From Bilabrum cf. latius (Eukaryota): 64,000 bases of DNA. A program made the translations under genes and the position numbers. Below, piece by piece: positions 1,181-40,780 of the stretch (its first letter is position 1; the number at the start of each line of letters is the position of its first letter). The stretch is from positions 1,426,001 to 1,490,000 of the forward strand of contig OZ237740.1 of NCBI GenBank assembly GCA_965178125.1. Direction: 5' to 3'. The notes below the pieces were generated by a model. It was not told the origin of the DNA. It saw only the letters and a list, made by a program, of their open reading frames with translations, and ran no database searches.

Positions 1181-4100
1181 TCACTCTAGCAGCTCATCAC
1201 CTGGTTTGGCAAGTGCTCGTGGTACCTTCTCTCGCACACCCGCCTCATGCCCCGCCCGCGCGCGAAGGTACGCCACCTCGTCCGCCCCGAGCGACGACGC
1301 CCCCACGGCGGCGGCCTCCTCTGGCAGCAGCTCGCCGTCGGCCTCCCGCTCCGATGGCCGCATCCAACGGAACACACCGGCCGTGGGCTCGCCCCGTCCG
1401 CCATACAGGGACTGGTACCCCCGCCCTTTCCTCCACGACCCACCACCCCCTCCATGCCCCCCACCTGCCTGCCCCTGCCCCTGCCCTTGCCCCTGCCCCT
1501 GCCCTCCCTCCAGCAGTGCCCTGTCCCTGCGCCTCGCCTCCGCCGCCTCCCTCGCTGCCATTCTACGGGCCCTCTTCACCCCGGCCTCGCCCCGCTTCAC
1601 CCCCGCGGGCACCTGCTTCGTGTCCCGCACCAGGTCGGGCCTCTCCCTCGCACGCACTTCCCTCGCCCTCGCGTCAGCTGCCTCGGCGCGGTCCGAGGCG
1701 CGAGCGAACACCTCCGCCACCACGTTGTTGAACCCGTTCACAACCACGCTGCCGTGCACAGGGCGCGCGTTCAGCCTCCGCGGCTCTCTCGCTGCCCCCA
1801 CCGCGTGATCGTGACCCGTGCCACTCACGAGCGTGCTGCCCCGCCGGACCACCCCTTGCTGGTGGAGGGGACCCAGCGGCCCGTCAGGGTCCGCCACCAC
1901 CCCGCCCAGCGGCAGGCCGCCCCTCCGGATGGAGGCCAGCCCCGCCCCGCCCCCCAAGTGAGCCTCTCGCAGAGCACGCAGGCCCTCGGGCCCCCGGCGC
2001 CGCGCCTCGAGGTATTCAGCGGCGGAGGGCGCGCGGGAGGCCGGTTGCAGCGGGTCTCTGCGCATGCCTGACGCGGCGCTGACACCTGCTGCCACGGTGC
2101 CGCCGCGCATGAGGAAGTCTCGGTCGTACCCGCGCGTGGGTCGCAGGGGCGATGCCACTACCAGCCCGCTTGTGCGGTACCTGGGATCGTATGTGGCCTC
2201 TGCATGCATCTGGGCCAAGGTCATGCCTTGGTCTTCATCCTCGTGCTCGCCGTACTCTTCATCATCCGTCGGTTCAGGAGACAGGGCCAATGAACCGGTC
2301 GTGCCGCGGCTCTGCATACCTCGGGGCACCAGCGCCATGTGGTCCAGCCCAGGCGCCTAGAAGCCGCCGTCCCCCTCCCCTTCCTCCTCCTGCTCGCCCC
2401 CCCTGCCCCGCATCCACGGTGTCCTCGCGCGGCCGTCAGTGTCATCGCCGCTGCCAGCCCCCACGGGGCCGATGGCACCCCGCCCGTCCCTTGCTGCCCG
2501 CTCGGCCTCGTCCTGCACCGCCTCCATGTCGGCTGCAGCGGCGGGGTCCTCGGTATTGAGCAGAAGAGGCCGCAACGGAAGGCCACCCCCCAACCCGCCG
2601 GGAGCGGCAGCCCCCGCCTGCACAACGGCCTCGCGCTCCCGCAGCCGCCCCAGCCGCTCCGCTCTCGGAGCCACGCCCGGTGCGGGCACAAGGCCCGTGT
2701 GATCCCGGCCCACCCAAGCGCGCCCCCTGCCCACCCTCACCTCCCCGAACCCGTCGTCCTTGACAGCGACCCTCTGGGCGGTGGCCTGCCGGATCACGCG
2801 GTACTCCCCCGGCTGGCCTTGTTCCCCCAGAGAGGGCGCCACCTCGTCGTAGGCGTCCACGCGGTAATACCCCGGCAGGCGGATCACCACGCAGCCGGAG
2901 GTGCCGGCCTGCGGGGGCCCCCTGCCGTCCGGCCCCGTGGCCCCCCGGCCGCCCTCCCCCACGGGCCTCCTCAGGCGCTCCACCTCGGAGGCCCCGACGG
3001 CCTCTGGCACCTTGACCAGCCGCACAGGCACGGGCCCGTCGGAGTCGCCCACCACCCCGAAGCCCTCTCCGGTCGACGGCGCGCCTGGCCCGTCCCCCCA
3101 TTCCACCGCCCCTGTCTGGATCGGGCTTTGTGGAATCGCCTGTCGCTGGCTGCCCAGGGGCACGAGGGCGAGCGCGTCGGTGTGGGTAGATCCGGAGGGA
3201 TCGGTGGAAGACAGCATTGAAGCCGCCGCTGTGGACGAGGCACCCAACAGCGAGGCACTCGGAGGAAGCCAGCCACCGGGACACCTGCCCCTCCCCGGCA
3301 GCAGCAGGGCATCGTAAGCCTCGCCGTGCAGGCGCCTGTGCTCCGCATCATCGTACGGAGCCGCAAGCGCGAAGGATGAACCGCCCCCGCCCCCGCCCAT
3401 CACCCCAGGAGTCCATCCACCCCCGCCCCCTCCGAACATGCCCGCACCCCCGCCCGCGCCCCCAGAGGCACCCTCTCCGCCCGCCAGACTGCCGCCAATC
3501 GCTCCCCCACGGAAGCCTCCCCGCCCACCCCCGGCCGTGCCCCCGTCCGCACCTGACCGCACAGCGTCCTCCTCCCATGGCCCGGCCACTGGCTCCGCCA
3601 GCCTCTTGCGCAGCTCCCTCCTGGCCTGCTCCATGTCCTTAGCAGCTGCCTCCGCAGCCCGGATCTCGTCGTCCTGCTCCTGGAGGGCATCCACTCGGGT
3701 GCGCGCAACTAGCCGCTTGCCGTGGTTGAGCCGCTTCTCGAGCGCGAGCCGGCGCTCCTTGGCCTCGTCGTCCTCCACCAGCACCACGGACTGGGCCCCG
3801 CCAGCGAGGGACCGCCCGCCCACCACCGTTATGCCGCCGTCCGCGTCAACGTTCCCTGCCCCCGCCGCGGCTGCTGCCTGCCTACGGGCCAGCACGAGCT
3901 CCCCGTCCTCCGCGGCCTCTCTCGCCTGCTTCTCTGCGGCTTCCTTTGCTTTGGCCTCTCCGTGTGCGTCGAACACGGCCTGCACCGTAGTATCGTCCTC
4001 GTACTGCCACTGGAACACCGTGGTGGTCCCGCCCGCGCCCAGTGTACTACCCTGCAACTTGGCGGCCTCTACCACGGCTGCTGCGGCAGAGTTCGCACTT

Positions 4101-7100
4101 GTTCTCTCGCCGCCGCGAGACATGCGGCGTGTGCTCCTGGTCCTGGCGCTGTTCAGCCCCGATCCATACTCAGCAGACCCTAGGGCGCTCGATCTGGCAG
4201 TGCTGCGGGCCACCTCCACCTCGCTCGCCGCCACGAATCCGGCCTCAGCCCCGGCCGAGGCGCCCTGCTACACCTGATCGCCCGCTGCCTCCCCGGCCCC
4301 GGAGCCCGCCACCCAGTCGGCCCACTTGCGCCACTGCCGCGCGACGAGGTCTCTGCTCTCCTCCTCGGACAGCCTCACGATCTCGCCCCCCTCTCGACCC
4401 TGCGATCGAGTGCCAGAGCTGCCGCCCCAAGCGACCCACGCGCCTCCGCCCGCGCGCCCAGGCCTCGTGCCTCCGCCACCTCCTCCCGCGGACAGCGCCA
4501 CGAGGATGTCCTCGGCTGCCCCCTCGCCGTCCTCCCCCCCTGCAGCCTCCTCCGCCGCCTCCCGCAGCACCTCGGCCTCGCCCTTCGCGGCCTCCTCTGC
4601 CGCCTGCTGCCACAGATTCACGTACCGGGGTCCATCCTGGGAGCCGCCGGCCCCGTGCGATCCACGCCCGCGACGTATTTGCTTCTTGCGCACGTACACG
4701 GCCGACATCCCACCCCCGCCGCCGCACGCGAACTGCTTGTTGAGCCCGTGCCCCGCACCTCCGCCTGGCCACCCACCCGCCGCGCTGCTCACACGGAACG
4801 GCTGCCTCCCCAATTCCTTCTCCCTCTCCCTCGCGTTGTAGGCCTCCTCCGTGAGGTGCCCCTATCTCCTGAGCGCCTCCTCCCTCTCCTGCTGCACCCG
4901 CCTCCTCCGCTTCTCTCCTGGGGCCAGGTGAGCCTGGAAGGACCTGCCTTCATCCGCGTCGTCCCCGCGCTTCCACGCCGATGTGGACACCTCCTCTTGC
5001 CCTGCCTCTGCACCTGCCCCCGCCTTGCCTTCGCCCTCCCCAACTGCATCCGCAGACTGGTGTGTCCCTTGGCTGGCCTTCCACATCGCCTCGGCCTCTT
5101 CCTCGGACCGTCCGAACTCGCCCGCGCCGCCTCCCTGCCCCACCACGCAGATGATCAAGTCGCCAGGCTCCACCGCGATGATCGTCTCGACGTACCCACC
5201 GCCCCCACCATCCCCGTGCCGTCCTCCAGCAACGCGCCCACCTCCGCCCCCCGCCCCCCACACCTACACCATCACCTCCTTGACGTGCGAGGGCACGCGG
5301 TACACGTGCTGCCCCGCCACCCGGAATACCCGCAGCCCAAGCTGCCGCAGGAACTTGGCACGGTGCTCTCGTCTGTCGCCCAGGCGCACCATCGCACCGT
5401 CTCCCGGCAGGTCCGACTTCACCAGTTTCTCAGGGTCATCCGCTTCATTGCTGCGGAACTCTGCCTCGCGGCGCCGCTCGTTGTCTTCCCTGGCCTCCCT
5501 CGCCAGCCTGGCCCTCTCCTCCCTGTCCAGCTTGGCTTGCAGCAGACGGGGGCCCTCTTTCAGCCAGCGCTCCACGGGCAGGGACACGCCGTCGAACTGC
5601 ACCACGCGCAGCGGAGACTCCTTCGATTCCCAACGCTCGCGCCGCCGCCACCCCAGCCACGCGCCGTCCCCCCATTCGCTCGCGTAGATGCAAGCCTCCT
5701 GGCGAGCACGCGCAGTCTGGAGAGCCGACAGCATCGGACCCAGCACTCTGAGCCTCTCTGGCATCCCAGCTGCCGGCGAGCCGCTGGTGCCTGCTGGCCC
5801 AGTCTCCGATCCTGTGCCATCACCGCGCACCCCCTACAGCTATACCTGGCTGCCACCACCCTCGGACGTGTCCGCCGCCCCTGCCGCTCTCGACCCCCCC
5901 CCATGCGCAGAGATGGGCCGTGACGCGGACTCGCCCATCGCGGACGCTCGCTCTCCGGCAGTAGCCCCTCCCGAAGCATCGTCCGCGCCGCGACCGCCGG
6001 ATCCCCGCTCTTCCTTCTGCACCCGTGGCGCATGCATCGGCCTCGACTCCACCGGCCCGCTGGTGGCAGGCCTCGGGACTGGCACTGGCACGATCCCAGC
6101 GCCCGACGCCCCGTCACCGCCGGCCCCAGACACGGTGGCTGGCCTCTGCATGGCGCCCTCGGGCAGACCCTCCACCACGCTGGAGCGGGGCGCCAGCGGC
6201 TCCACGGGCCCCAGCCGCATGTGACGAGTGGCCTTCCGGCGGCCCCCATGTCTGGCCCTCTGCTTGGTGGGGAGCCGCCTCGAGTCGATGGCGGCGTCAG
6301 GGGGATGCGCCTGTCGCGCCGATAGCTGTTTCATGCGCTCTGCCTCGTCTTCATCGTCCTCGCCGGTGGCCTTGCGGGAGGACGAGGCCCGAGACAGGCC
6401 CAGGGCGGGTATGCCGCCAGCTGCAGGATGGCGACTCGAGTTGGGGCTCGGCGGGCGCGGCGGCTTGCCGGAGGACGCTGGAGCACCGCCTGGCTCCTCC
6501 ACTGCGCTTGGCTTGCCCCCTTTCGACTTGCTCTCCTGCTATCCATCGGATGCACTCCCATTGTCACCCTCCCCTTCTTCTTCTCTTTGTTCCCCAGTCT
6601 CGGCGCCAGGAGCATCCTCGGGCTCCGGCATGGCTTTCTGCAGCCTCCTGCTGTACTCGCGGACAGAAGGAGTGGCAATGGTGGCCCGCACTGCGGAGTC
6701 GAGTGCAGGTGCGCCCCCCTTTGCCTCTCGACTCATGTCACTCGCCAAGCTGCTGCGCCCGCGGCCTCTCCCCCTCTTGCTGCCCTCTGTGTCGCCCCCG
6801 CTCGCCATGCTGTCCCTCCCCCAGTCGCTCTCCGAGTCAGAGCTGAACCCATCCGCTGAGGGGCCCACGCCGAAGGACCGCTCCGAGCCGGTTGGGCTGC
6901 GCGCCCGCTAGCTCGGTCGCCTGCTGTTGCGGATTGCAGCCGCCTTCTTGAGCTGAGCCTCCCTTCGAGCAGCAGCCCTGTCCCGCACGCGCGCGACCGC
7001 CTCATCCCCGGCCCGCAGCGCCGCTCGGTATGCTGCCACTGTCTCGCTGTCGACCCCCCAAAAGAGCGACTGGATTCCCCCGGCCTCGGGTTCAGCAAAC

Positions 7101-10100
7101 TTGCTGCCCTCCTCTCCACTGCCACCACCCTTGCTATCGTCACCATCTCCAGCGTCCGCCTGGGCCTCGCCCCTCGCCAGATCCCACGCAGCCACCGCCG
7201 CCATCTGCTCCTCCACCCTCAGCGCCTCTGCCTCTGTCCTCAACACATCCAGGGGAGACCGACCCGCCACATCGGGGCAAGCTACCTCCGCCCCGAACTC
7301 GTTGAGCAGGGCCAGAGCGCACTGCAGATGGCCCTGCGTGCGCCGACGAGAACGAGGCATGGCGGCGGAGTGCAGCGGAGACTCACCCCTCCGATTTGGC
7401 ACGTGAACTAGTGTGCCTAGCATGGTCACGGCCACCAGACGGATGAAATCAGGGCATGAGAGCGCCTGATCCGGGTACCTGCCAGGCCCCAGCGCCCTGT
7501 CCGCAGCGATCCGTCGGATAGGTTCCCAGAGACGCCGAGTGGGAGCGGGGGGCCACGGCAGCACCGCGTGCAGCGGAACATCCCCGGCGCCGCGCGTGGC
7601 CTCCATCAGCCTGGCATAGTCGTCCCTGACCGGCAGCATGCGAGCTCCGTCCGCCTGGCTTCCAGGGCCACCGCCCTCCGCCTCGTTCGCGTAGTGAGCT
7701 GCGAACAAGGCCGCCTCGCGAAGCCGGGCCGCCCTCCTCTGCCGAGCTGCGGCCCAGGAGCCCTTGCGCCAGAACGGCCTGCCTGCGTCGTCCTCTTCCA
7801 CCGCGGGGCCTCCAGCACGGTCTCTTGACACTCCCCCTTTCCCATACCGATTTCGCCCCCGCCTCCGCCCCTGCCCACCCTCTTCCTGCTCGTGCTCGCG
7901 CTCGTGCTGCTCATGGTGCTCCCCCACAAACACGCGATAGGCCTCCTTGACCAGCGCGTCCGCCCAGCCGAGCCGGAATACCTGCCTCTCCCACTTGTCC
8001 AGGCGCCGGGAGACCTCCCCTCGGTACGTCTCCGCGCACGCTTGCACAAAGGGCACGGACACGACGTGCATGAGCACAGCCTGCCGGCAGTGCCGTAGCA
8101 GCAGCTGCATGAACTCGCTGTGGCCCCGCTCGGCCGCCACGTGCACGGGCGTGTCACCGTACCTGTCTCTGGGCAGCGCGACGGCGCCCCAGTCCACCAG
8201 CAGACACCCAGCCATGGCCAAGTCGCCCCGCCTCGCCGCCCAGTGCAGTGCAGTGCGCCCCTGCCGGTCCCTGCCCTCTGTCCCAGCGCCTGCCTCCAGC
8301 AGCATCATCAGCGCCTCCGCGTGCCCCAGCCGGGCCGCCACCAGCAGAGGGGGGTCCCCAGTGGCAGGAGAAGGTTCGTCAGGGTCCGCCCCGCCGATGA
8401 GAAACCGCAGGATGGCGGGGCAGTCGTTCCTGGCCACAGCCGCCCAGAGAGACACCACGCCCTGGGTGCCGCCAGCGCTCCCGCCCAGCCGCTGCGTGAA
8501 TCCCTCCAGTTCAGTCCAGCCTGGGCCCGCGCCAGGGCCCGGTCCTGCAGGTGCGCCCGGCCCGATGTAGGGGCCACGCAGCTTCAGGTGCATGCGTGGG
8601 ACGGCTGTGTTGCCTGCACCATCGTGCGGTGCACCCATGCCCTATGGCACGCCCGCATCGCTGCCATCTCGGGCATCTGCGACGGGCGGGGGCAGTGCAT
8701 AGGTGGGCGCAGCCGCGAGCATGGGCGCCAGCCTGCCCCCGTTCATGACCAGCAGCTCATAGTCACGCATCGCGTGGAAACCGGCGCTCTCGCGAGCAGC
8801 CTCGTCTCCACCCGCGGCGCCCATCGCGCTCCCCACGCCCCCGTAGGTGGCAGCTGCGGCGGGTCCCGGATGCACCGCGCGCCCCGCCCCCGTCCTCCCC
8901 GAGCTCCCCACGCCCCCGCCCTGCAGCGCCTCCACCACTGCCACCGCATGTGCAGAGGAAGCCGCCTCGAAGTCCTGCTCCATGACACCCCGCCATCCGC
9001 TGCTGCCCACCGCCGCCTCGGCCAGCCAGCCGCCAGTGACCAAGGAGGGCCCCAGCAGCTGCGCCGTGCGCTGCCGGAGCACCTCGGCCTCCACTCCGCT
9101 GTGGGCCCCCAGCAACCCCGCCCGCATCGGGCCGCCGGACTAGGAGCTCCCCGGCCGCATGAGCTCCAGCGCCCGCTCCACGGTCCCCAGCCCGGGGAGA
9201 CCCCCCACCGCAGAGGGGTCAAACCCCGCCCCCGGCCTGTTCCCCCGCTGCGAGCCCTGCGTCATGCGAATCATCGCCGTGGCGAGCGCCTCCCGCTCCT
9301 GCCGCAGCTGGTGCGGTCCCACGGCCCGCGGGCCCCCTGCCATGGAGGGAGGCGCGGCCCGGATGGCGGGCAGCAGCGCCATGCCCGCGTGCCTGACATC
9401 CCTCGCCACAAAGGCGGGCCCGAACACGGCTGACTTTGGGTCGAACCGGGGCTGCCGCTGCAACTCCCTCACGCTCTCCTCGGCGAATGACTTAGAGGAC
9501 ACGCCTGCCGTGGGCACCCTCCGGCCGATGCGCCGCGTGCTGGCTCCTGAGAACTCTGAGAGACCCCCCTGCGACTGCAGCCCGCGAGAGGGGAGGTGCG
9601 ACCTGGAGTATCCGCCCTGTGCCGAGCCAGTGCCGCGGGAGGGCAGCCGGGCCACGCGAGGCGCCATTGCATGGGGGGGCAGGGAGTCGTGCGCAAGCTG
9701 TGCCGCGGACTCCGGGCGGCTGGCGTCCGCGGTGGGGAGCCGCCTCGCCCTCCTCGCAGAGTCCTGGCCCGTGTCCACGGCGCCCTGCACGGAGGCAGCC
9801 AGCCGATTCGCGCGCATGGCGGCGGGCAGCTGGGCGTTCTGCGCCAGCAGAGCACGCATGGCCATGCCTCCGGGACGATCCAGGCCTTCGGACCGCAACT
9901 CCTGCGCGATCTGGCTGCCACCTCCACCCCAGCCCATGCCTCCCCCGAGACCCCCATCGCCACCACCGGAGCCGGCAGATGGCCCCTAGTCTAGTCCAGC
10001 TAGTCGAGGCACCAACGGTCGCTTGCTGAGGCGCGACCCTGCCTTCTCTTCCTCCTCCTCCTCCTCCTCCTCCTCCTCCTCCTCATGCCGCCTATCGCGA

Positions 10101-13100
10101 GCCCGGGCCCGGGCCTTATCCTTTTCCCTTCGAGTGGCCTCCTGCCGCAGCTCGGCTTGGTACAGCGCGTAGTAGGAGGGCGCCGCATCACGGGTGCCCG
10201 GGCGACTGGACTGCTACTCTGCTGCCTCGCCGCTCTCCAGCTCACCGCCCTGGCCCGGTGCCTGCTGGCCCCACCCCCCGTCCACAATTACCATGGTGCC
10301 GCGCTGCCTCTCCCCACTGAGGCCCAGGTCGTATGCAGTGCTGAGCTTCCCTCCAGCTGCACCCGGCCCTCTACCACCCGCTCCCCCGCTCCCCGGCAGC
10401 CCACTCTCCGCTGCCTGTCTCGCCACTGCCTCCGCCTGCATCCTGCCCAGTTCCTCCCTCGTCTCGCGCAGCACCGCTTCGTGCCTCCCCACGGGCCCCA
10501 GCCCAGCCGTCTTGGCCTCGGCCCGTGCCAGGGCCAGGGAGGCCTCCTCGGCCAGGACCCGCCCCCCATCCTCCACCCTGCCCCCTGCCTGGGCCTCCCG
10601 AGCCTCTTTCTCGCGCCGGGCTCGCATCTCCCAGCCCAGCTGCCCGTCCAGCGCCCCACCTGCCAGACCCTCAGTCTGACTCGCGTCGTACTGCGCAGCT
10701 CGGCTGTCAGCAGCCGCCGCCGCTCTCACCCCCTCCGCCTCGGACGTCCCCTGCGCCCCCGCTCCGCCGCCTACTCCACCTCGCCTCGCGTCCCTCGCCG
10801 GCTCGACGAGAGCGCGATACCTGGCTGCAGCCTCAGAGGCCTCCAGGTCGCCCACTCCCACCCGCAGCTCGGAACGCGCGTGCTCCGTGGCGTGAAGCGC
10901 ACGCTGCAGCTCACCCGCGACTTGTTCCTCCACACGCACCTGGCGAGCCGCCGCCCGCTGGGAGGCCCTCACGGCCGCCTGTCGCACCGCGGCTCGAGGC
11001 AGACCCATGGGCCCGCCCCGGGGCGGGGGCTGCCCACTGAACCCTCCCGCCACTCCGCCTGCCGACGGCGGAGCATCTCCCCGGAGCGTCTGCACCAGTG
11101 CGGGGTGCTGCACGGGGTCTAGGCCGGCTCTGACCATCATGCTCAGCAGCACCTGCCCACCCACGCCGCGTGCGAGGCAGTGCCGCACCCACCGGCCCCA
11201 CGCGGGGGGCAGGGGCTCTCCGTTGAGCCCAGTGCTGCTGAGGCGCTGCCGGGGGTCCTGCAGGTTCAGCGGAAGCAGCGGGGGTTCGTGCGAGAACGCG
11301 TCTGCGGCAGAGCGCCCCTTGGTATTCTAGTGGCTGCCCTGCACACGCACACGGAGCGTGCCTCTGCCACCGGCCACCCTGTGCCTGAAATCGGAGTCGG
11401 TGGGCATGGGCTGCAAAGTCGCGGTTAAGGGCCGAGAAGCAGACGTACTACCGAGCTCTTCTTCTTCGTCTCGAGACTCACGCTGGGATCCTTCCCGCGT
11501 CGGTTTCCGGGCCGAGTGCGTAGGGGACATATCCGGGGAAGGGGCCCCGCCCTCCGAGGGACTGCCTCCTCCTCCTCCTCCTCCTCCTTCACCGCTTCCC
11601 GCGCCCGGCCTGATGCCCCCGAGAGGCAGACGGGGGATGCGTGGTGTCAGAGCGAGCGCACCGTGACTGGCTCCAGCTGGCGACCTCGGGGCCAGACCAC
11701 CCCCCGCGCTCAATGGCCCCAGACTCCGAGGCCCTCCCCCTAACCCCCCCCCAGCCCCAGCCCCAGCCCATCCATCCCCAGTGAGAGCAGGTTCAGAGCC
11801 CGCACCTGGAGTGGTAGTCTCTGCGTCCTTCAGGGCAAGCATCGCCGCTGTGTGCACGCGCCCCAGCCCCCGCAGCGCCTGCGGCCCATCTGGCATGCCA
11901 CCCGCCACGCGCAGCGCCGCCACCGCCTCCACCACCTCCATCAGTGCCCCGCACAGCGCGGGCCGGAAGCCCTTCCTGCTCAGCGTGGCTAGCACCTCCC
12001 AAGGGGGCACCCCCCTCCACAGGTTGTCCTCGGCCCATGCGAACCACCCGTGCGGGATGCAACCGGGGGACACGCGCAGCCCAGGGACCCACTCCCGCAT
12101 GCGGGCCAGGGCGCGCCTGGCTGCCTGTGCCTTAGCCGCCTGGCTCGTGCGGCCGATCCCCTCCACCACCCGCTTTTCAACGACCCTACGCAGGCGAGGG
12201 GGGCGGGGCGCCCTCCTGACCGCTCGGGCGGCCTGCCTGGCGGCCCTGGGCAGCTTGGGCCAGGCCACGGGCAGCACCCGCACTTTGTTCTCCGCCAGGG
12301 ACAGACGGGGGACGGACAGACGGGAGCGGGACCGTCCTTTGCGACCGTGCTTGCCGTGCCTCCGCCGGCCCGACCCACCCCTCGCCCCTCTCCCAGTGCC
12401 TCTCGCCGAATCCGCCCCCCTGCCCCGCGCGCTCTCCCTCGCCATCCAGTCGTCCAGGTCATCACCGCTCGAGGCACTCGCCGCACTCGTCACAACGGAC
12501 ACGTCCTCCCGTCCACTGCCCTCCTCCTCGCCACCTTTCATGCCCCCTCTTGACTAGATCTAGCCACCGACCGATGGTACCGTGCCCGCCTCCCCTGTGC
12601 CGTCCCTGAACGAGCCGGGCAAGCGGCCCCCGTCCAGCGCCTCGACCCACTCGCCCTCCAGCTCCACGCGCATCACGAACGTGTCCACCACAGAGGTACC
12701 ACCCTTGCGGTGCTCCAGCAGACGCCAGTTGAGCGCCAGCCCGCGCACAGCCGCCTGCTCCTCCAGCACAGTCACGGCGCTTCCGCCGAAGATCTCTAGC
12801 AGAGCAGCGGCCCCGCGGAGGCGACCGCGCGCGGGCAGCGCAGCACGAGACGCGCCAAGCACTCTATTGCGAGATGCTCTTGGATCGGCAGTGGTGAGAC
12901 CCTGCCGAAGAGAGTGTACTAGCGTAACGTACTCTGCAAAATCCAGAGCCCCGCTTCCATCCTCGTCCATAGCATGAAAGAGGCGCTCTGCCTCGGCTTC
13001 CACGTTCCCATCCACTTCAACATCCTCTGTCTATGCAAGAGCGAGCACGACCTCCTCTAGCTCCAGTCCACCACTCCCGTCCACGTCTAGCTGCGAAGCG

Positions 13101-13290
13101 GCAGAGCGATGGTGCATGCATTGTGAGTTCGGCCTCGAATGAGTTCGGCGGCTTGCGATGTTCAGCCAAGCGGGAAGAACACACTTACTTGCTTAAAAGA
13201 CTGCCTCAGCTCGTCTATCTCTTGCGGCGAGAAATCGTTCTGCAGTGCTACTGGCACCACAAGTGCAGGTTGGGTCTGTGGGAGGCTCAT
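1181..13290 (-). CDS. Giant (~4003 aa) protein with N-terminal EF-hand pair, ankyrin repeats and long low-complexity/coiled-coil regions; requires TAG=Gln
   Basis: Model complement(join(1181..13090,13189..13290)), with intron 13091-13188 (GTAAGT...CGCAG). Thirteen listed minus-strand ORF pieces share one frame and are separated only by TAG (16 in-frame TAG, no TAA/TGA until TGA at 1181). EF hands 'DVDGSGGLELEE' and 'DEDGSGALDFAE'; ankyrin motifs 'GRTALHWAARRG', 'GDTPVHVAAERGH', 'GESPLHSAA'. Confidence 0.8.
10049..10084 (-). repeat. (GAG)n trinucleotide tract encoding poly-Glu in the giant protein
   Basis: Run of (cct)n on the + strand, in frame as GAG codons on the - strand. Confidence 0.85.
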
Positions 13291-13497: not shown

Positions 13498-15612
13498 ATG
13501 CGGGTATTGCTGCTAGGAATAGCCGCATTATGTTGTATCAGTCTCTTTCGAGCGGCAGCTTTCTCTGTATCTGGCTGTAGCATTTGGTACTCGTCCTGTA
13601 TTCTGGCCTTCAGCAGCTTGATGCTCGTTTTTGTTGGCATTCAGCTTCGTACTGCCCTAGACGCTCAACTCAAGTTGGGTAGGGCCAAGTATTCTTGGGT
13701 ATGGGAGCCTGTCGTGTGGGCTGGGAAGGAGCAGGCGGCACGGGCGATAGCTATTCTCGGAGCATTGGTGCTTGCGGCAGATTTGTTCGTCAATGGAATT
13801 GGTCCGGACCCCAGCTAGCTCTCAGGTGTTCCTTTGCATAGTTATATATTTGGCGCTCCGCCGTCCAATTTCGGAATGCATCTAGCGCTTGGATGCGGGA
13901 TGATGCACGACTGCGTTCATGTTGGCTCCAGCTCGGTCGCTCCGCTGCTGCTCGGCGGGGCTGGCACATCCAACGGTGTGGCACGATTCGATGTGGATAG
14001 GACCTCTGTACTGATTGGGGTGGACGGCACTGAGATTCATGTGGACTAGGGTTCCTTCGCGGCGCTTCCTGGAACGTTCTTGGAACGGTACCCGCCGCAG
14101 CTTAGAGTCGTCGCACAGCCCCTTGCATCCGCAGCAAGCAGCTCGGGGCACGTCGTTGCGATGAAAGTGGACTATCGGCAGCCCATTACACCCGCTGATG
14201 CCCCCGCACCTAAGTCGAGGAGCCTGGGAGCAGCCCCTCCTCCTCCTCCTCCTCACCCTCAGCCAGCCGTGCCCCCACCTCGAGCCATGGAGGGGGAGGA
14301 GCTCTCGCTCGCCGCCGCGGGGTGCATGGCCATCGTGCGCTTCTACCTCCGCAGGAACGGGGCAAGACTAGCAGGCACGCAGGCGACTGCTTGCTTCGAG
14401 TTGCGGAGCTCCCCCCCGCTAGCCCCGCAAGCTCCTCCGCCCACGGTTGGTCGGCAGCTCGCGCACGATGTAAACGACCCGGAGCTGTATTGGTGGACGG
14501 CTCAGGCGGCGGGTGGATCTCCCGCGGCTCCGACAGAAGGGGCTCTGGCTGGGCGGCCTCTGCTGCCGGCCCAATGCGGCGGATTCCCTGCCGTGGTGCA
14601 CCAGACCTGGAAGACGAGCGAGCTGCCGGCGTCCTACCGGGAGTGGCAGGGGACGTGGCAGCACGCCATGCCGGGGGTTCGGCTCGCGCTGTGGACGGAC
14701 GAGAGCAACCTGGAGCTGGTGAGGAGAGCGGCCCCGTGGTTCGAGGCCTCGTACCTGCGGCTGCCCAAGCCCATCGAGCGGGTGGACGCGGTGCGGTGGG
14801 TCTACCTGGCGGCCTACGGGGGGGTCTATGCCGACCTGGATTTCGTGGCGATTAGGGACCTCGCTTGGCCTCCCGCCAGCAGGACGGCAGAGGGGCTCGT
14901 CGAGAGAGGGGGCGCGGCGTGTACGGACGCGGCAGAGGGACCACCCCGTGAGGGCGACAGCGATCGGGTGGTGCGATCCATGGCAGACAGCGGCGTGCGG
15001 ATGGGGCCCGGGGCGGGAGGGGCAGGAGTCCCGGAGGGGGGACAGAGATAGGGCCAGGGAGAGGGTTAGGACTAGCCGGGGCTGCCTCTCCTGCCCGGGG
15101 ATGGTAGGGGGGAAGGGGTCCCCGGCTCTTCCCCCACCGGCTCGATGCCCCCGCTCGTGTCCTCTCTGGTGCTGGACCCCGCCTACGACGTGGTGCTGGG
15201 CCTCATGGATGCGTCCCCATGGCAGCGGCCGCACAACCTGCCCAACGCCTGGATGGCCAGCAAGCCCGGGGTGGGGCTCTGGACGGACTGCCTCCGGGAC
15301 CTGGACGATAGGGTCCGCAGCGGGGATGTGGGCGAGCACACGGCGGTGGAGACGGTGGCGGGGCCAGTGGCGCTCAAGGCCTGCGTGCAGCGGCACGGCG
15401 GCAAGTACCGCGTGCTCATGCACAGCCCAGAGGTGCTGTACCCGCACGACTGGTCTCGCAAGGGGCGAGGCGAGGGCTGTGAGACGTGTGCAGAGGGCAT
15501 GCCCAGTGAGGTGCAGGCCAGCAACCCTGGCACCCTCGATGAGGCCCTCCGGAGGCACGCGCCGCTGTCGCACTCCGCAACTTTCTGGACGCACTCTTGG
15601 GCTTCACAATGA
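13498..15612 (+). CDS. Glycosyltransferase family 32 (DXD; OCH1/SUR1-like) with hydrophobic N-terminal segments; requires TAG=Gln
   Basis: ORF pieces ending 13818, 14049, 15051 and 15612 share one frame. TAG at 13816, 14047, 15049, 15067, 15073; TGA at 15610. Motifs 'PAVVHQTWK', 'LWTDE', 'ERVDAVRWVYLAAYGGVYADLD', 'NAWMASKPG', 'TGP-like AGP', 'WTHSW'. Start codon uncertain. Confidence 0.8.
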
Positions 15613-15799
15613 TAACGGGAGCACACATCACCGATTAATTCTAGGAGGATGACAGTACTCCTGTCATCTGATAGCCTCTCGATCCTATCCATGGATTCGT
15701 GACGAGTGCACTCCGGAGGCGAGCACGCTGCTGCACGCCGGCTTCACCTCGCAAGCTCTTGCACGATTGCTGCGATAGATCCACTCTGATCATTTCACT

Positions 15800-17425
15800 A
15801 TGGAGTTGAGAGTTGGAAAGTATTTTACAGTTGGCAAAAAGGTTGGATCGGGGTCGTTTGGAGGTGAGCAGAGACGTAAAATTGCTTCTATCAACGGACA
15901 ATCTGCGAAATCAGGACCCTGTAGACCACCGATTTAGACTCACCCCGCAGAAATTTATAACGGAACTAACGTCAGAAATGGACATAAAGTTGCAATCAAG
16001 TTGGAAAGTATCAAGGCTGCGCACCCGCAGCTGCATTCAGAGTCTCGAGTATACAAAATCCTCTCCGGGGGTCCTGGCATACCCAAGCTTCATTGGATGG
16101 GAGTGGAAGGAACGTACAATGTTATGGTTATTGATCTGCTCGGACTTAGCTTAGAAGATCTGTTCGCCAAGTGCAACAAGCGATTCAGCCTGAAGACGGT
16201 GCTGATGCTCGCAGACCAGATGATCTAGCGCCTCCAATTCATGCACTCGCGCTGTATGCTGCATCGGGACATTAAGCCTGACAATTTTCTCATGGGGGTT
16301 CGGCGGCGGGCAGACTTGGTTCATGTGATCGATTTTGGACTGTCGAAACGCTACCAGGACGCTCGCACCCGGGCGCACATACCGTACAGAGAAAACAAGC
16401 AACTGACTGGGACGCCGCGGTACGCCTCAATTAATGCTCACTTAGGCATAGAATAGAGCAGGCGGGATGACCTGGAGTCGCTTGGGTACGTGTTACTCTA
16501 CTTCTTGCGCGGATCGCTGCCTTGGTAGGGGCTGAAAGCGCCGAACAAGAAGAAAAAATACAAGTTGATCAGCGATACAAAGCTAGGAACTTCACTGGAA
16601 TAGCTTTGTCGCGGAGTGCCAGATGAGTTTAGGTTGTACATGGAGTACTGCAAAGCCCTCCGGTTTACAGACAAGCCAGATTACGCATTTCTGCGCAAGC
16701 GATTCCAGCAGCTCGCGGGGAGGAATGACATCGAGTACGACAGCGTGTTTGACTGGATGCTGCCGCCTCACAACATGCCTAACCCGTAGATCGCCCCAGT
16801 AGTCAGCCAAAGCAAGGCTCCTCAGCGGCGAGCGAGCGCTGATCCTTCCGCAGTAGCAACGGGCGGGGCGGACGGCGGGGCACGGCGCCGGGAGAGGATC
16901 CAGCGCAAGGGTATTTCGAAGAGGAGACTGAGCGTGGACTCGGGCGGTCTTCCTCGCGCCGGAGGGGGCCCTGGGCCCCGAGCTGGGACTGGGGCGTAGA
17001 GCTCGTCGGGCGCTGACATTGGCAGCGCGGCGGGGGCAAGGGGCGGCTCCAGCGGCGGCAAGCGCATGGGCAAGGGGGCAGGGGCTGAGGCCGTTGGTCA
17101 TGACCCACGGCATGGCAGGGCCGCTGGGGGCGAGGCCGAAGGGCCGCGGTCCCGGCATTCCCACCATCACCGACACACACACGGGGGTGGCATCGCGGCC
17201 GGGGGCAGCCGCGGATCCAAGCTGAGCTCCAGCATGATGGCCGCCCCGTCGCACTCGATTTCCTTTGAGGCGCAGGCCGAGAGGAGGGGACGGGCGTTCG
17301 AGCCGGGGCCGGGGATTGCTACGAAATCAAGGAGCGTGGAGTTGTCTCCCTCAGAGGTGGATGGCATCAGGCGGCGCATGGAGGCGCTGATGGGGGACTT
17401 GGGCGACCAGGACGGTTGGATGTAA
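15800..17425 (+). CDS. CSNK1: Casein kinase 1 (~512 aa); requires TAG=Gln
   Basis: join(15800..15863,15951..17425), intron 15864-15950 (GTGAGC...CCGCAG). 'MELRVG...GSGSFGEIY...VAIKLE...HPQL...HRDIKPDNF...DFGLSK...[28 protein letters not shown]...GSLPW*GLK'. In-frame TAG at 16226, 16454, 16526, 16601, 16787, 16997; stop TAA at 17423. Confidence 0.95.
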
Positions 17426-17695
17426 TACGTGGACGCACACACGACGGGGGGACTTGATGATGAGCGACCAGGATGGGATATGCATTGCATTGGTGCGGCA
17501 GTTGCACTTGGCGCCAAGACAAGAAGCAACACTTTTTCATAGTTTGGAGATGCAGCCGAGGTCATGAGGGAGACAGGGAGACAAAATGGGTTTTCGTTTG
17601 CTGTTAGCTACCATTATAAAAGCACAAGTCTCGGAGAACTTGAGAAGCAGCACCCCCGTTGGCTCCAAGACACCCGACCTTGTAGTGGCAAACAA

Positions 17696-20317
17696 ATGCT
17701 CGATTTTGAGTAGTTAAGGTCGCTTCAAAGCCTGAAAGATGCAATTAATAGCACAAAAGACTTTGAATCGACGCAACTGACAGCGGTAAGCAGTCGCAAT
17801 CAAGAACCAAACTCTGGTGACCATCGTAGTCCACCAAGAAGAAAAGCCGTAGCGGTTGAAGAGACCCCTTTGTTGAAACAGCATATCGCTTGGCCCCAGT
17901 CGTGTGGACGTGTGAATGAGTGTGAATCACGGCGAAAAGCAGATCGTACATGTGCAATAGAATCGCCCAGCAGCGCGCAGGACGCTGCAGCCCACGTATG
18001 CAGCAACCGGTTCGGAATCGAGCACCTCAAGTCAAAGCAGAGACGGGCCTTGAAGTGCATGCTACGATTCAGCCCAAACATTGGCCCCGAATCATATTCA
18101 TCCGAGGCAGCTGCTTCCAGTGGGTGCACGTCGTCAGTTCCGTCCAATCAGCGCGATGTGCTGCTGCTCCTGCCAACCGGCTACGGCAAATCTGCGTGCT
18201 ACCTGGCGCCGGCAGGTATGAGCCCGGGCATCACTGTGGTGCTCTGCCCCCTCGTTGCACTGGTTGACGACCAATGCAGACAGGCGAGCGCAGCCAGTCT
18301 CCAGAGCGCTGTCCTGCACTCGGGTATGAGCGACACGGCCCGCCGGCGCGTGCTCGCCCGCCTGTGGGCTGCAGCCAGGGCGCCGATGGCAACGCTGCAG
18401 CGGGCCGCGAAAGTGTACTGCAGCGGTGCACCTGGGGCCAGCGATGAAGCGCCTGCCTCTGTCCTGGACGTGCTTGTCACCACCCCGGAACAGGTGCTAC
18501 ACTCGTCACCCCTGCGCGCGGCCCTCTCCGCCCTGCACGCCAGGAGCCTGCTGGCTCGATTCGTGGTGGACGAGGCGCACGTGCTGGCGCGCTGGGGGCC
18601 TGGCTTCAGGCCCGCTCTGCTGTAGCTAGGATCGATTCGTGCCAAGTGGCCGAGGGCACAGCTGGTGGCGTGCACGGCCACTGCCACGGCTGGTATCGCA
18701 GCCCAGATCGCCGGGTGCCTTGGAATGCGGGCACCGCGGGTGGTAGCTAGCAGGAGGGACCGCTGCAACCTGCGCCTTGAAGTAAAGCGGAGATAGCGTG
18801 GATCCAGTGCGTCGCTGCGGTAGGTGTGTCGTGAGGTGCTGGCGCTGGCTCTTCCAGGCGGGTGTGCACCTGTGAGAGGTGCACCTGTGAGAGGTGCCCT
18901 GCCACTGCCAGTGGCTCGAGAGGCTTGCCAAGGACTCGTGTACTGTCTGACGAGGAGCGAGTGTGAGAGGGTGGCAGCTGCTCTCGGAGAACACTTAGGG
19001 TGTTCTGCAGTCGCTTGCTACCACGCAGGGATGGGGGCAGAAGAACGGGCAGGCGCGGTGAGGGCCTTCGCGCAAGGCCAGGTGAGGGTGGTCGTGGGCA
19101 CGGTGGCGTTCTCCATGGGCATCGACCACAGAGCCGTTCGGTTTGTAGTTCACGCAGGGTGTCCGACGAGCCCTTTGGCCTACATGCAGGAGATAGGGAG
19201 GGCGGGCAGGGACGGGCAGCCGGCTTGCTGTGTGCTGCTGGCAGGAGAGGGTGACCTTGGGCGGGCTGTGGGGCATGCAGGTGCTGACGTGGACGAAAGC
19301 GAGGGCGGGCCGGGATGGGAAGCCCGAGCGATTAGCAGGTACTGCGACTGCTCGTGCGTGTGCAGGCGAGTGCTGCTGCGAGAGCTAGCCGGGGTGGTTA
19401 GTCACGGGTTGCGCACTCTAGAGGACGAGCCCTCGTCGAGGACAGCGGCTGCTGCGGCGGGCGTAGGGGGTTCATTGGCAGGACCTTTGCTGGAGGCAGT
19501 GCAGCTGGACGATGCTGGGCTGCTTGCTGCCGCCATGCAGAGGGACGCTCAGTCGTGGCCCGCCCGGGGATGCTGCGATGTGTGCGATGCGCTGCTGGCC
19601 CGCCGGGGGGACGGGGCAGCGGTGTCGGGGCCACTTGCAGCCCGTGCATGCCTGGGTCCTGGTCCTGATGGTCCTGTTGAGGACTCTGCGGATGCCTGCG
19701 GCCCAACTGCGAGTGCGTGGGACGTAGTCGACATAGGCTCGTGCAAACGAGCGGTGGCATAGGCGCTAAAGGAGTCTGCAGACGTGTCCACCAAACCAGG
19801 CAGCCAGGCGCATACACCGTGGGCTATCCGGCGACGGGCAGTGGAGCTCCTCGCTCTAGAGGCGGCGAGGGGCGGGGGCACTTCTCGCAGCAGTGTGACT
19901 AGTGTGACTGGCAATGGCCAAGCAGGTGGTATTGAGACTCATGTTCGGGACAAGGACAGCATGTTTGGCATCGAGGATGCCATCTACAGCCAGGCAGTAA
20001 GCATTCACGAGCCCAGCACTGGGATGTCCGCACAGGATGGCGTGCGGTTGGCGTACGATGCTCTTGTCCGGTCTGGGGAGTTGCAAGAGCACAGGGCGAG
20101 CTAGCCACTGGCAGGCGCATTGCCTCGGTGCCAGGCGGTGGCGGCACACGTGCTGCAGACTGATATTGGCGACAGGAAGGTGCAAGGGAAGATACACACC
20201 CAAGGGCGTAAACAGGCGCATGGGGTGGAAACTCAGCATCTCATTTTGGTCCCTCGGCACATGCGGGCCACCGGCAGTGGTGTAAAACAAATGAGGGCAA
20301 GTGGCTGCTCGCGGTGA
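17696..20317 (+). CDS. RecQ-family DNA helicase (~873 aa); requires TAG=Gln
   Basis: Motifs 'LPTGYGKSACY', 'PLVALVDDQ', 'VVDEAH..WG.GFRP', 'ACTATAT', 'YHAGM', 'TVAFSMGID', 'YMQEIGRAGRDG', and RQC Zn-site 'CRR...CCDVC'. TAG at 17711, 18623, 18794, 18821, 19760, 20102; TGA at 20315. Start uncertain because the frame is open further upstream. Confidence 0.88.
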
Positions 20318-21169: not shown

Positions 21170-23344
21170 TCACAGATGTGCTCGTCTCTTGCGGAGCGTG
21201 GAGCCCATGAACACGTGCAGTTCTCTCAGTAGCAGGTGCGCGAGCCCGTCTCCTCGGGTGGGTCTTGGACGAACCCCCGAGGCAGCGCCCCTGGCCTCCG
21301 TCCCATCCACAAGATCGGCGCCCCGGCGCGGGTCGTGGCCCATGAGCGCCAGCACGGGCTCGGTGTGGTCAACGCCGGCCAGCGGCACGGCAGTTACACC
21401 GACAGTCCCGACGAATCCATCGAAGCGCTTGCCTTGCATAAACGCCTGCGAGGCGCCGTGCCTGTCGATGCGCATGCGGGGAGGCACCGCCCTCTCAATG
21501 CCCCCATTGGCACTCTCGATGCCCCCGCTGGCACTCTCGATGCCCCCGCTGGCACTCTCGATGCCCCCACTGGCACTCTCGATGCCCCCACTGGCACTCT
21601 CGCCGACCGTTGCACCCGGCCCGCCCGGCCCCTCATGCTTCCTCCTAGAATGCCCCCCACTGGTAGAGCCCCGGGGAGCCACTACCCCATCCCTGAGCTC
21701 CTGCAAAGCGGCGAGCAGATCCGCTGTGCTGGACGGGGGCACTACACCGTCGGCGGTGCCATGCAGCAGCAGCAGCGGAGGCATTCGGCCGAGAAGAGCG
21801 TGCCTGCCCGGCTCGGACAGGTGCACCGCCATGCGCTGTAGCTATCGCGCAGGCGACAGCCGAGCAAACCCAGCCTCCGTGCCTCCCATCGCGGGCGCCA
21901 TGGGCGACACTCGCTCCACCCCCTTGAGCGAGAGCGGGCCCAGGGCCACTCTCCTCGAGGCTTCGTGTTGGAAGTGACGCTGCACGCAGTACACGCCCGA
22001 CAGGCCCACCACGCCCCGGATGCTCGCCAGGATCTGGTCCGCGGGCTCCTCGTGCGACCAAGGGGACCACGACGATCCGCCCGCTGCTGGTACTCCTCCG
22101 GTGGATTTGCCGGCATAGGGCGCCAAGGCAGCGGGGGCTGCTGGGGGGTGGTGCAAGGTGGAGGTGGTCGGCGCTTTGCGGGCGCCATTAGATGCAGGCG
22201 ACAGCTCGGCTGCCATGCCCGCGCACTGCTCCCCTGCCGCGAGAGCAGCCAGCCGCAGAGCAAGCGTGGTGACCAGGTGGGCCCCTGCCGACTGCCCGAA
22301 GAGCACCACGCGGGAAACGTCGACGCAGGCCGGCACTGACGGCCGGTCGGCCGGGTGCGAGTTAAGTCGCAACTCCCGGTCAAACTGCGAGCCCAGCGCA
22401 GGCGCAGACCTCGAGTTGGCCCCTCGGAATGCATGCGACGCAAATGGATGCCCCTACAGCCGATTCGCCAGCAGGCGGCGGGCACGGGCGAGCGAGTGCA
22501 TATGGCGGGTGGTGGGGTCGTGCACGGTTGCCTGCCCTTTGCTTGTCCGGCCCTGGTTTGAGTCTCCCGTGGCACTCGCTGCCACTGCCACTGAAGTCAA
22601 TGGCTCCAAGTCGCTGCTGCCTACATTGGACGCGCGGGTTTCGGCCAAGCTCTAGCCCGGGTCGGCACCTTCCTGCCGCTGATGGGTTTTGTCCCACCTC
22701 TGCTCCTGCATGCGAGTCTCGCGGCGCATCCAGCAGAGCAGCCTTGCGATGTCGTCAGCCATGCCAGCCGCATCCGAGTGCGGATACACCCGGTACGACG
22801 GGACGAGCACTGCAGTTCCCAGCCTGTCTGCCAGTGTTCGGGCGAGCGACGCGTACTGCCAAGGCTCGCCGAACGCCCAGGCACCCCCGTGCACGTACAC
22901 GAGTGCGGGAATGCGACGCAAATCAGGAGGTTTCGCTCGTGACGGTGCCAGCCCAACCCCATCTCTCCTGACCGAAATTTCCGTTACATGCGCACGGTTC
23001 AGACGAAACCCATAAGGGAGGTAGATATCAACTCTGTGCCGCGGATGCGGGCCGTAGCTGGCCCGAACCGCTGGGCCTGCAGCCAGGCACCGTGCCAATC
23101 TGCCAACAACGCGGGGGCGGCTCAAGCCTGCAAGCAGCTCGGTTATCCCAGCCAGTGGAAACATCCATGCATCAATGCTGGCCCTGAGCCCGATGCTTTG
23201 GTCCTGGAGTGGTTGGACCCCTTCTCGATCTGAGTGGCGAAGCAGGAGCCAAGATCTGGCGAATTGCCAAACTACCGCAGCAGACCCCAGGGATGCGCCT
23301 AGATGCCAGGCATTGCGACCAACAAGATCAATGTACGAGCTCAT
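21170..23344 (-). CDS. Alpha/beta hydrolase, isoprenylcysteine methylesterase (ICME)-like (~724 aa); requires TAG=Gln
   Basis: 'YGPHPRHRVDIY', 'VYVHGGAWAFG', 'GQSAGAH', 'LLLHGTADGVVP', 'DH' lie in four same-frame pieces separated by TAG at 22652, 22454, 21842. TGA at 21170. Confidence 0.82.
21498..21602. repeat. 21-bp tandem repeat, 5 copies (ATGCCCCCRYTGGCACTCTCG), encoding ESASGGI repeats in the hydrolase
   Basis: Units start at 21498, 21519, 21540, 21561, 21582. Confidence 0.9.
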
Positions 23345-32800: not shown

Positions 32801-32933
32801 GGCCCGCGGAGGCGGGTTCTTCGGTGCGATGGTTCTCGCGGAGGAGACAAGGACCGGGTGCCTTGCTTGGGCACTTGCCGTGGCACAGGCAGCTCAGGTG
32901 CCCGTGTTTGGGGACCTAGACTCGCTGTAGTGA
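29859..32933 (+). CDS. Hypothetical coiled-coil protein with possible C-terminal PH-like domain (~943 aa); requires TAG=Gln
   Basis: Tentative join(29859..30100,30192..30638,30791..32933), with introns GTGAGT...CGCAG and GTGAGC...CGCAG. 'TFRPLTN' motif near the N-terminus; 'EGPVLKR...W..RLL...LEYH' near the C-terminus. TAG at 31761, 32247, 32928; TGA at 32931. Confidence 0.5.
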
Positions 32934-39294: not shown

Positions 39295-40780
39295 ATGTCA
39301 GGTAGCCTAGCCGACGTTCAGTAGTTAAGAGAAGAAGTGAGTTTTAGATGTGTTTGTTACTGCGATCAGAGCATATCTGCAAAATTTCGCACATTTTTTA
39401 CTGTTCAACCCTCCGGTATTTTTCTTGCAGCTGGAAAGAATCAAAAAGTCAAATGACCAAGTTGAATTCGAAAATAGGATATTATAGTCTTACCTACAGC
39501 ATCACCGGGCGGAGGATGACGATGACGGGATGCCTGGTTCATCAGACCCAGTCACGCCAGCAAGTCCTGCTCGGCGCCGAAGGGGACGCAAGGCAGCGAA
39601 GATACCGACTAGACTAACAGTCGATTAGCTTCTCGAAGTCGCCCAAAGCGAGTTTGATGAGGCAGTCAGAGAAAAAGGCAAGCTTGAAAGAAATCTGGAA
39701 GAGCAAGTAGCCCGTAACCAGGCCAAGCTGGAAGAGACCAACCTTCGTTTGCAGGAAGTGGGGCGTGAGCTATTGGATTTTAATAAGCAGGTAATTCGCG
39801 ATACTGGTGATGATTTGAGTGGCAAGGTCTAGGCGGAAAAGATAGTGAAGTGGATGCAAGTCTCTGCAAAGCGGAAGCAGCAACAGGTCCAGAAGATTTC
39901 ACTGAAAACAAAGGGCCTGCAACGCTAGCGCAAGCAGCTGTAGTAGCAGCTTAAGGACAAGTAGGAAATGGGCGACGTTCTCCACTACATTGACTTTCAT
40001 CAGTTGCAGATCGAGAACAAGCAGTACATGGCTCGCATCGAGGAGAAGAATGCGCAGTTGCTGCAGCTAAAAGCCAGTACAAGCAGGGCCGTGCAGCACT
40101 TGAATGGATTGAAGAGGAAGCTGAAGGGTCTGCTCGAGGAGCAGGCTTAGTACCGTAAGGATATTCGAAGCCGAACGGACCTGCTGCAGCGGCTCCGCAA
40201 GGAGAACCAAGCTGTGGTGACCCAGATTGAGTCCCAGCAGCGGGCAGGCGAGCGCCTTGACGCCGCCGTGGAGGAGGGCGCCGACCTGCCGAGGGTACTG
40301 GACTACGTGCGCACCAAGTCGGGTCACTACGAGCGCGACGGCTCCAAGAATTCGTGGGCCCGCAAGCTGGAGATCGCCGAGATGGCGGCCCGGCAGGCCG
40401 AGGCCAGGCTGCGCACTGCACGGCGGGCTGCGGTGGCAGCCAAGCATGGGGCCGCGGGCTCATTTTCTGGGAGGAGCGGTGCAGGTGGGACAACAAACGC
40501 AGCAGGCTTGGGCGCCACACGTCTGCTGGAGGAGGACCCAGCGGCCGCCCTGGAGCTCATCGCCGGGCAGCTCGAGGCAGCGGCGGCCTCGGATGGGCGC
40601 AAGGCAGGGAGGCCCGGCCGCGCCGGTGCTTCGGCTGTGGCTGCGAAGCGCACGGGCGTGGCGGGCGCCCCAGTACGCACTGTGGCTGGTGCCCGGGGCA
40701 TGGGTGGCCGCGGCCAGCTGCTTGCAGGCTCCCTGCGTTAGTACAACCCTGCGTGGGGTGGCACCGGGGGCCTCGGATAA
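39295..40780 (+). CDS. CCDC113: CCDC113/CFAP263-like ciliary coiled-coil protein (DUF4201) (~463 aa); requires TAG=Gln
   Basis: join(39295..39336,39431..40780), intron GTGAGT...TTGCAG. 'LTVD*LLEVA', 'EMGDVLHYIDFHQLQIENKQY..RIEEKN..LLQLK', 'LPRVLDYV', 'SWARKLEIAEM'. About 10 in-frame TAG, including TAGTAG at 39941. Stop TAA at 40778. Confidence 0.82.

Follow-up and report, generated by a model that had tools for sequence, protein, structure and literature searches.

Six in-frame TAG codons in a casein kinase 1 gene point to a nuclear code with UAG as glutamine in a putative relative of Cafeteria

The stretch of DNA analyzed here, 64,000 nucleotides (nt) of contig OZ237740.1 (positions 1,426,001 to 1,490,000; below, the window, whose own coordinates are used throughout), carries on its forward strand a casein kinase 1 (CK1) gene with six in-frame TAG codons. 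An initial annotation had reported four TAGs in the catalytic domain, at 16226, 16454, 16526, and 16601. These positions and the sequence contexts quoted with them were exact, and all four lie in one open CK1 frame. However, that account missed two further TAGs in the tail of the protein, at 16787 and 16997, as well as a short 5′ exon and the intron that follows it. With TAG read as glutamine (Gln), 15953-17425 stays open for 490 codons up to a terminal TAA, and the TAGs are residues 92, 168, 192, 217, 279, and 349 of the exon-2 frame. The whole protein is 512 amino acids (aa) long. The parts of the gene are given below, with the residues found at the aligned columns of 118 homologues and the codons of a metagenomic relative (contigs L001 and L040) that is described further on.

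15800-15863, + strand: CK1 exon 1, with the ATG at 15800, coding for 21 residues and the first base of a split Glu codon
15864-15950, + strand: CK1 intron of 87 nt, GT..AG, phase 1, skipped by one contig each in the public sequencing runs X5 and X6
15951-17425, + strand: CK1 exon 2, with the kinase domain, a low-complexity tail, and a conserved C-terminus ending in DGWM, followed by TAA at 17423-17425
16226-16228, + strand: TAG, exon-2 residue 92, in a variable column (N68/S22/C10/L9/A8/T1); CAG in the relative
16454-16456, + strand: TAG at the Gln of EQSRRDD, Gln in 118/118 homologues and in the PDB CK1 chains shown; CAG in the relative
16526-16528, + strand: TAG at the Gln of LPWQGL, Gln in 118/118 homologues; CAG in the relative
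16601-16603, + strand: TAG in a variable column (A44/V42/L13/S8/T5/I4); CAC (L001) and CAT (L040) in the relative, both His
16787-16789, + strand: TAG directly past the kinase domain; ACC (Thr) in the relative, in a diverged region
16997-16999, + strand: TAG in the low-complexity tail, 141 codons ahead of the conserved C-terminus

Judged by its sequence, the gene is a member of the CK1 family of serine/threonine protein kinases and is closer to CK1 than to other kinase groups. The hallmarks of CK1 are a Gly-rich loop, the VAIK lysine, an HRDIKPDN loop, DFG, and an S-I-N motif that replaces APE. All of these were present, with the Gly-rich loop GSGSFG(E)IY running across the exon junction. The Pfam Pkinase model matched with 70.4 bits (cutoff, 31.7), and a phmmer search against PDB aligned CK1 residues 1 to 271 gap-free with rice CK1 3sv0 (E value of 2e-121) and with human CK1 delta. 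Among the 60 PDB matches listed, the top 38 were CK1, Hrr25, Yck, or Gilgamesh chains (2e-121 to 5e-84), and TTBK and VRK chains ranked after them, from 3e-36. No frameshift was found, as had been proposed. The frame itself is also far from what chance would give: TAA and TGA were absent from all 490 codons of the CK1 frame compared to 28 in 978 codons of the two other frames, and simple arithmetic from this off-frame stop density puts the chance of an open frame as long as that of CK1 at ~7e-7. Compared to CK1 delta/epsilon, Hrr25, and plant CK1-like kinases, the protein shares 62 to 67% identity across the whole kinase domain with its catalytic motifs intact. It differs from them in the six TAG codons and in a C-terminal tail of ~220 aa that is Gly/Ala/Arg-rich, lineage specific, and common only to the close relative. 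A near-identical CK1 was not found among the public protein matches, whose lengths were 153 to 489 aa.

The four TAGs of the kinase domain had been described as lying at near-invariant Gln residues. This was borne out for 16454 and 16526, where the EQSRRDD and LPWQGL motifs are conserved and the Gln column is invariant in each, whereas 16226 and 16601 lie in variable columns. The homologues were the 120 listed matches minus P0003 and P0004. These two, the top CK1 matches, had the bit scores of close relatives but proved to be internally duplicated transcript assemblies and were dropped. Past the last TAG, at 16997, the tail still looks coding by composition, with a guanine-plus-cytosine (GC) content at third codon positions (GC3) of 0.79 compared to 0.48 after the TAA.

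A scan of metagenome contigs gave 43 CK1 loci. Among these, L001 and L040 share a stretch of 782 nt with three mismatches and represent one relative, whose CK1 is 83% identical to that of the window over the best segment. Its gene has the same exon 1 and the same intron position. Opposite the window TAGs at 16226, 16454, and 16526 the relative has CAG, and opposite 16601 it has a His codon. Conversely, it has a TAG opposite the window CAG at 16217, three codons upstream of 16226, and further TAGs of its own in the CK1 tail, so that none of the six TAG positions is common to the two genes (0/6). TAG and CAG thus appear to interchange over evolutionary time at CK1 Gln codons. The two proteins nonetheless end alike: the CK1 of the relative closes with ...RMEALLGPLGEGDGWM-TAA and that of the window with ...DGWM-TAA, the motif and the TAA being conserved in L040.

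The relative is less GC rich (GC of 0.51 to 0.54), and its two coding frames hold 12 and 3 TAGs, compared to no TAA and no TGA in 1,188 codons. Its noncoding frames hold three to six TAAs each, and both of its genes, CK1 and the RecQ-family helicase gene that follows it in L040 as it does in the window, end in TAA. This means that TAA is a stop and not a rare Gln codon, because it is absent from the coding codons of a less GC-rich relative and yet ends both genes. The RecQ proteins of the window and L040 are only 41% identical, so that most TAG pairings between them are unreliable; 5 of 16 sites pair TAG with CAA, CAG, or TAG. The RecQ N-terminus, MRETGRQNGFSFAVSYH... (17564-17700, + strand), is conserved in L040 at ~1321-1400 (NAGFSFAVSYH). 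In the window, RecQ happens to be in frame with CK1, with the TAA at 17423 between the two.

CK1 is under purifying selection. Between the window and the 83% identical relative, the proportion of nonsynonymous differences (pN) in the kinase domain was 0.090 and that of synonymous differences (pS) was 0.868; past the first TAG they were 0.072 and 0.897, respectively, and constraint is strong. These proportions are given instead of a ratio of substitution rates (dN/dS) because synonymous sites are saturated (pS > 0.75). With pN far below pS, no frameshifts, and identical contigs that have no intron (see below), the gene does not look like a pseudogene, in agreement with the initial annotation.

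Public contigs of four runs, X5 to X8, were mapped on 15400-17700; X5 and X6 are from another study. X5 and X6 contain contigs that show no differences from the window and skip 87 nt with GT..AG ends (15861/15863 joined to 15949/15951). For example, one X5 contig consists of 15742-15861 joined to 15949-17067 and contains all six TAGs. Contig ends were found at 15632, 15742, 17478/17495, and 17549, and they match the end of the upstream gene, the end of CK1 (53 to 70 nt past the TAA), and the start of RecQ. Such a pattern is as expected of transcripts and makes CK1 expression likely, with the library type of X5 and X6 being guessed. The objection that the locus might be silent is to that extent weakened. 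X7 and X8 contain relatives that are ~92 to 94% identical in DNA, and the differences listed for them end before the TAG sites. At 16180-16230 and 16384-16428, X5, X6, and X7 also contain other CK1 pieces with five to six mismatches per 40 to 45 nt. These pieces, which carry CAG at the Gln of EQS, have a depth of 70 to 588 compared to 3 to 14 for the window's own contigs, and the window organism thus seems to be a minor component beside a dominant organism with a standard-looking CK1.

The use of TAG is not confined to CK1. TAG is predicted to be an in-frame sense codon, meaning Gln, across nearly every gene of the window. With this assignment the window has 15 long frames, of which Pfam supports 11, and the 15 contain 78 TAGs, 493 CAGs, and 129 CAAs, TAG being ~11% of the Gln codons (the frames were counted stop to stop, so some noncoding 5′ sequence is included). 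The terminator is TGA in ten of the frames and TAA in four, and the remaining one continues beyond the window. No frame requires TAG as a stop; transcript ends were seen around CK1 alone. A codon score found coding sequence on both sides of 28/754 TAG sites, compared to 0/371 for TAA and 0/1,336 for TGA, and coding-like sequence upstream only at 15/754 TAG sites. Of the 13 tails that could be measured past the last TAG, 11 were at least 70 codons long with a GC3 of 0.52 to 0.85; 10 of the 11 were at 0.63 to 0.85, and the frame labeled GLUCM was at 0.52 throughout. After the terminators of the complete frames, GC3 drops to 0.42 to 0.64.

Two further genes were informative as to which residue TAG specifies.

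39341-40780, + strand: CCDC113/CFAP263 frame, nine in-frame TAGs, TAA end
40915-44196, − strand: sortilin/Vps10 frame of 1,094 aa, eight in-frame TAGs, TGA end; Pfam Sortilin-Vps10, 307 bits

In sortilin, the relative P0123 (97% identical) has Gln at both TAG sites of the domain. At the same two sites P0124 (81%) has Ser and Gln, and P0126, from Cafeteria, has Asp and Gln. Five TAGs lie within a Gln-rich stretch of the sortilin N-terminus. An occupancy of 80% or more was reached by 14 TAG columns across CK1, sortilin, and CCDC113, and these columns, taken together, gave log-likelihoods of −41.1 for Gln, −65.5 for Ser, −66.4 for Ala, and −70.3 for Glu, with Gln best by 24 units. The mean frequency of Gln among homologues was 0.285 opposite TAG, 0.249 opposite CAG, and 0.06 opposite GAG; the corresponding frequencies of Glu were 0.154, 0.127, and 0.457. 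The homologue profile opposite TAG therefore matches that of CAG and is unlike that of GAG.

The window has a GC content of 0.63 overall and 0.54 to 0.73 in 2-kb segments, with few introns and a ciliary gene present. The best named match of its sortilin is Cafeteria roenbergensis at 52%, with other named taxa at 42% or below, and the named CCDC113 matches are nearly all stramenopiles. In a quick IQ-TREE sortilin tree, the window grouped with P0123 and P0124 (support of 100) as sister to Cafeteria with P0125 and P0127 (SH-aLRT, 91), and both groups fell inside a clade with a support of 100 in this single gene. On such single-gene evidence, the window organism would be a stramenopile related to the bicosoecid Cafeteria. 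The resemblance extends to high GC content and few introns in C. roenbergensis and C. burkhardae, the nearest named relative by sortilin; the nuclear genome of Cafeteria has a GC content of ~70%, and the part of its description consulted annotates a nonstandard code for the mitochondrion only (Hackl et al. 2020, PMC6972860). Unlike the window's clade, Cafeteria has a public sortilin prediction that is full length and shows no sign of having been cut short by a TAG. The public sortilin proteins P0123 and P0124 start at an internal Met, well inside the Vps10 domain relative to Cafeteria. This fits gene calling under the standard code with in-frame TAGs upstream, and the public annotations of the clade are probably truncated.

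Taken together, these data are best explained if the window stems from the nuclear genome of a Cafeteria-related stramenopile that is rich in GC and poor in introns and in which UAG has been reassigned to Gln, UAA and UGA are stops (NCBI table 15), and CK1 is a functional, spliced gene. We put the probability of this reading at about 0.9. The identity of the residue, which had been proposed from CK1, is favored by the invariant CK1 columns, by the CAGs of the relative, and by the pooled likelihood. The same code is evidently common to two members of the clade, and the reassignment is lineage-wide and larger than one gene.

Several observations weigh against this reading. X5 is labeled "RNA? 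(probably DNA)" and, as noted, the library type of both runs is a guess; if they are DNA, the intron-less form would be a DNA variant and no proof of expression, although the presence of the intron in the relative argues against an otherwise identical intron-less DNA allele. The codon score was trained on frames that had been defined with TAG as Gln. No tRNA genes were found in the window or in the L001/L040 scans, and an Rfam scan of the window gave no matches. In CCDC113, some TAG columns hold other residues in most homologues, namely Glu at residue 208 (114/120), Trp at residue 270 (92/120), and Met at residue 164 (90/120). These mismatches are tempered by the finding that the ordinary Gln codons of the query face Gln in just 21% of homologue residues on average. 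Finally, the frame orf30525 ends TAG-TGA (32928-32933, + strand), and in CCDC113 a TAG precedes the terminal TAA by 12 codons (40739-40780, + strand), so that occasional termination at TAG is conceivable. These two terminal TAGs could be former stops that are now read through to a nearby backup stop, or they could be due to chance.

The last point bears on the possibility that UAG is ambiguous, being Gln inside genes and yet a context-dependent stop for some of them, as in Condylostoma, karyorelict ciliates, and Blastocrithidia. Besides the two frame ends, the TAG sites with coding-like sequence upstream only would fit this, and gene 3′ ends are known for the CK1 region only. However, each of the 14 complete frames continues to a TGA or TAA and only then does GC3 fall, most post-TAG tails are long and coding-like, the giant frame of 4,003 codons contains 16 TAGs, and CK1 and its relative share a C-terminus and a TAA well past their last TAGs. 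An ambiguous UAG is therefore quite unlikely. A slimmer prospect still is that UAA and UAG both mean Gln (NCBI table 6) and that a GC-rich genome simply has too few TAAs for this to show. TAA is in fact the rarest of the three triplets (194 on the + strand of the window, compared to 386 TAG and 684 TGA), and two papers state that UAA and UAG usually change jointly (PMC11687900, PMC5304391). Yet TAA closes four frames, past which GC3 drops, no TAA site had coding sequence on both sides, and the less GC-rich relative has 15 TAGs and no TAA in its coding codons, with TAA available in its noncoding frames. In addition, the TAA of CK1 is kept in the relative right after the DGWM motif, and the window's contigs end 53 to 70 nt later.

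That TAG is a sense codon for another residue, such as Glu (as in peritrich ciliates), Leu, Ser, or Tyr, is very improbable. The CCDC113 columns offer some support for Glu: in addition to residue 208, residue 201 is Glu or Asp in 109/120 homologues, and residue 49 is Glu in 47/109, the commonest residue there and the one found in the two PDB chains whose alignment reaches it. Against this stand the two CK1 columns with Gln in every homologue, the log-likelihood, which favors Gln over Glu by 29 units and over Ser by 24, the CAG or CAA codons, not GAG, that close relatives have opposite TAGs, and the five TAGs in the Gln-rich stretch of sortilin. The most remote of the alternatives is that CK1 is a decaying or silent pseudogene, or that its TAGs are fixed by U-to-C editing of the mRNA or are assembly errors. 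The standard code does give six premature stops in CK1. However, pN is far below pS, there are no frameshifts, every neighboring gene carries in-frame TAGs too, and the relative places its TAGs at different positions. The X5 and X6 contigs are letter-identical to the window at the TAGs and have no intron, which, if these runs are RNA, rules out editing at the TAGs as well as error.

The other frames of the window that contain TAGs or were otherwise of interest are as follows.

1181-13192, − strand: frame of 4,003 codons with 16 TAGs, the longest, with an N-terminal EF-hand pair and ankyrin repeats at about residues 1580 to 1700
17564-20317, + strand: RecQ-family helicase, six in-frame TAGs, TGA end
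SPRY protein: 1,745 codons, six TAGs
Further frames read with TAG as Gln: Cid1-like poly(A) polymerase, Arv1, alpha/beta hydrolase
Further frames read with TAG as Gln: DXD glycosyltransferase, D-glutamate cyclase-like protein

The 4,003-codon frame contains very long low-complexity stretches rich in Gly, Ala, Arg, and Glu. The DXD glycosyltransferase frame, which lies upstream of CK1, ends with tandem stops, TGA TAA, at 15610-15615 (+ strand); the X5 contig end at 15632, ~20 nt past them, suggests very short 3′ untranslated regions. Short tandem repeats were seen in two other genes. The alpha/beta-hydrolase frame (~21300-21500, − strand) has about five copies of the 7-residue unit ESASGGI near its C-terminal part, and a zf-HIT/BCD1-like gene that runs off the window (63700-63998, + strand) has at least four tandem copies of the 12-residue unit GPKDTAADQQSA.

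As for the mechanism of a UAG-only change to Gln, a tRNA-Gln with the anticodon CUA would pair with UAG and not with UAA. It would probably have come from a duplicated tRNA-Gln(CUG), and the N-terminal domain of the release factor eRF1 would be altered such that UAG recognition is lost and UAA and UGA recognition is kept, a scheme that follows passages of PMC5304391. Since the code is shared by two lineages between which synonymous sites are saturated, the reassignment appears to be stable and of long standing while TAG and CAG replace each other, and at least two members of the clade have diverged deeply. The GC content of the window is a misfit with a simple AT-driven codon capture, because GC pressure should favor TAG as a stop and not make it rare.

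Nuclear code changes are rare, and those that split UAG from UAA are rarer still. The present case, if true, would be a further independent one of UAA and UAG differing in meaning, and it is probably a new independent origin of a UAG-only Gln code. No nuclear stop codon reassignment in stramenopiles was found in the full-text literature, subscription journals and supplements being outside the scope of that search and the taxon lists of surveys being places that could hold one; the stramenopile items met in the searches concerned mitochondrial codes only. We lean slightly toward regarding the sister clade of the Cafeteria group, GC-rich flagellates in which UAG but not UAA would be Gln, as the first known nuclear stop codon reassignment in stramenopiles. 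A GC-rich stramenopile case would offer a test of whether tRNA-Gln(CUA) and particular eRF1 substitutions recur each time, and also of whether base composition matters to stop codon capture. In practical terms, proteins of this clade come out shortened or in pieces when genes are called with the standard code, so genomes and metagenome bins of the lineage need table 15.

UAG-only reassignment to Gln has been reported for Iotanema spirale, Protocruzia tuzeti, Hartmannula sinica, and Trochilia petrani, and other cases in which UAG and UAA are decoupled are a rhizarian (Leu) and Scotinosphaera (Ser), as listed in PMC11687900. The fornicate I. spirale is alike in that UAG is Gln and UAA is still a stop, and a tRNA-Gln(CUA) and an altered eRF1 are predicted for it, the eRF1 substitution being T32G in the GTS motif (Panek et al. 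2017, PMC5304391). It is unlike the present case in that it belongs to Metamonada and is represented by transcripts only, whereas here the lineage is apparently stramenopile, the GC content is 0.63, the main stop is TGA (10/14), and the evidence comes from genomic DNA. For the phyllopharyngean ciliates H. sinica and T. petrani and for P. tuzeti, the same table was also inferred from UAG at conserved Gln columns, and no evidence of context-dependent use of UAG as stop and sense was reported for H. sinica and T. petrani (McGowan et al. 2024, PMC11687900). These organisms are ciliates, which change codes frequently and in which UAA is the dominant stop, compared to the mostly TGA stops of what is probably a stramenopile flagellate lineage here. 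Table 6, in which both UAA and UAG are Gln, occurs in many ciliates, hexamitid diplomonads, Streblomastix, ulvophycean green algae, and Amoeboaphelidium, according to PMC11687900. The window resembles the table 6 organisms in the change from stop to Gln and in the interchange of TAG and CAG, and it differs from them in that TAA does not appear to have been reassigned.

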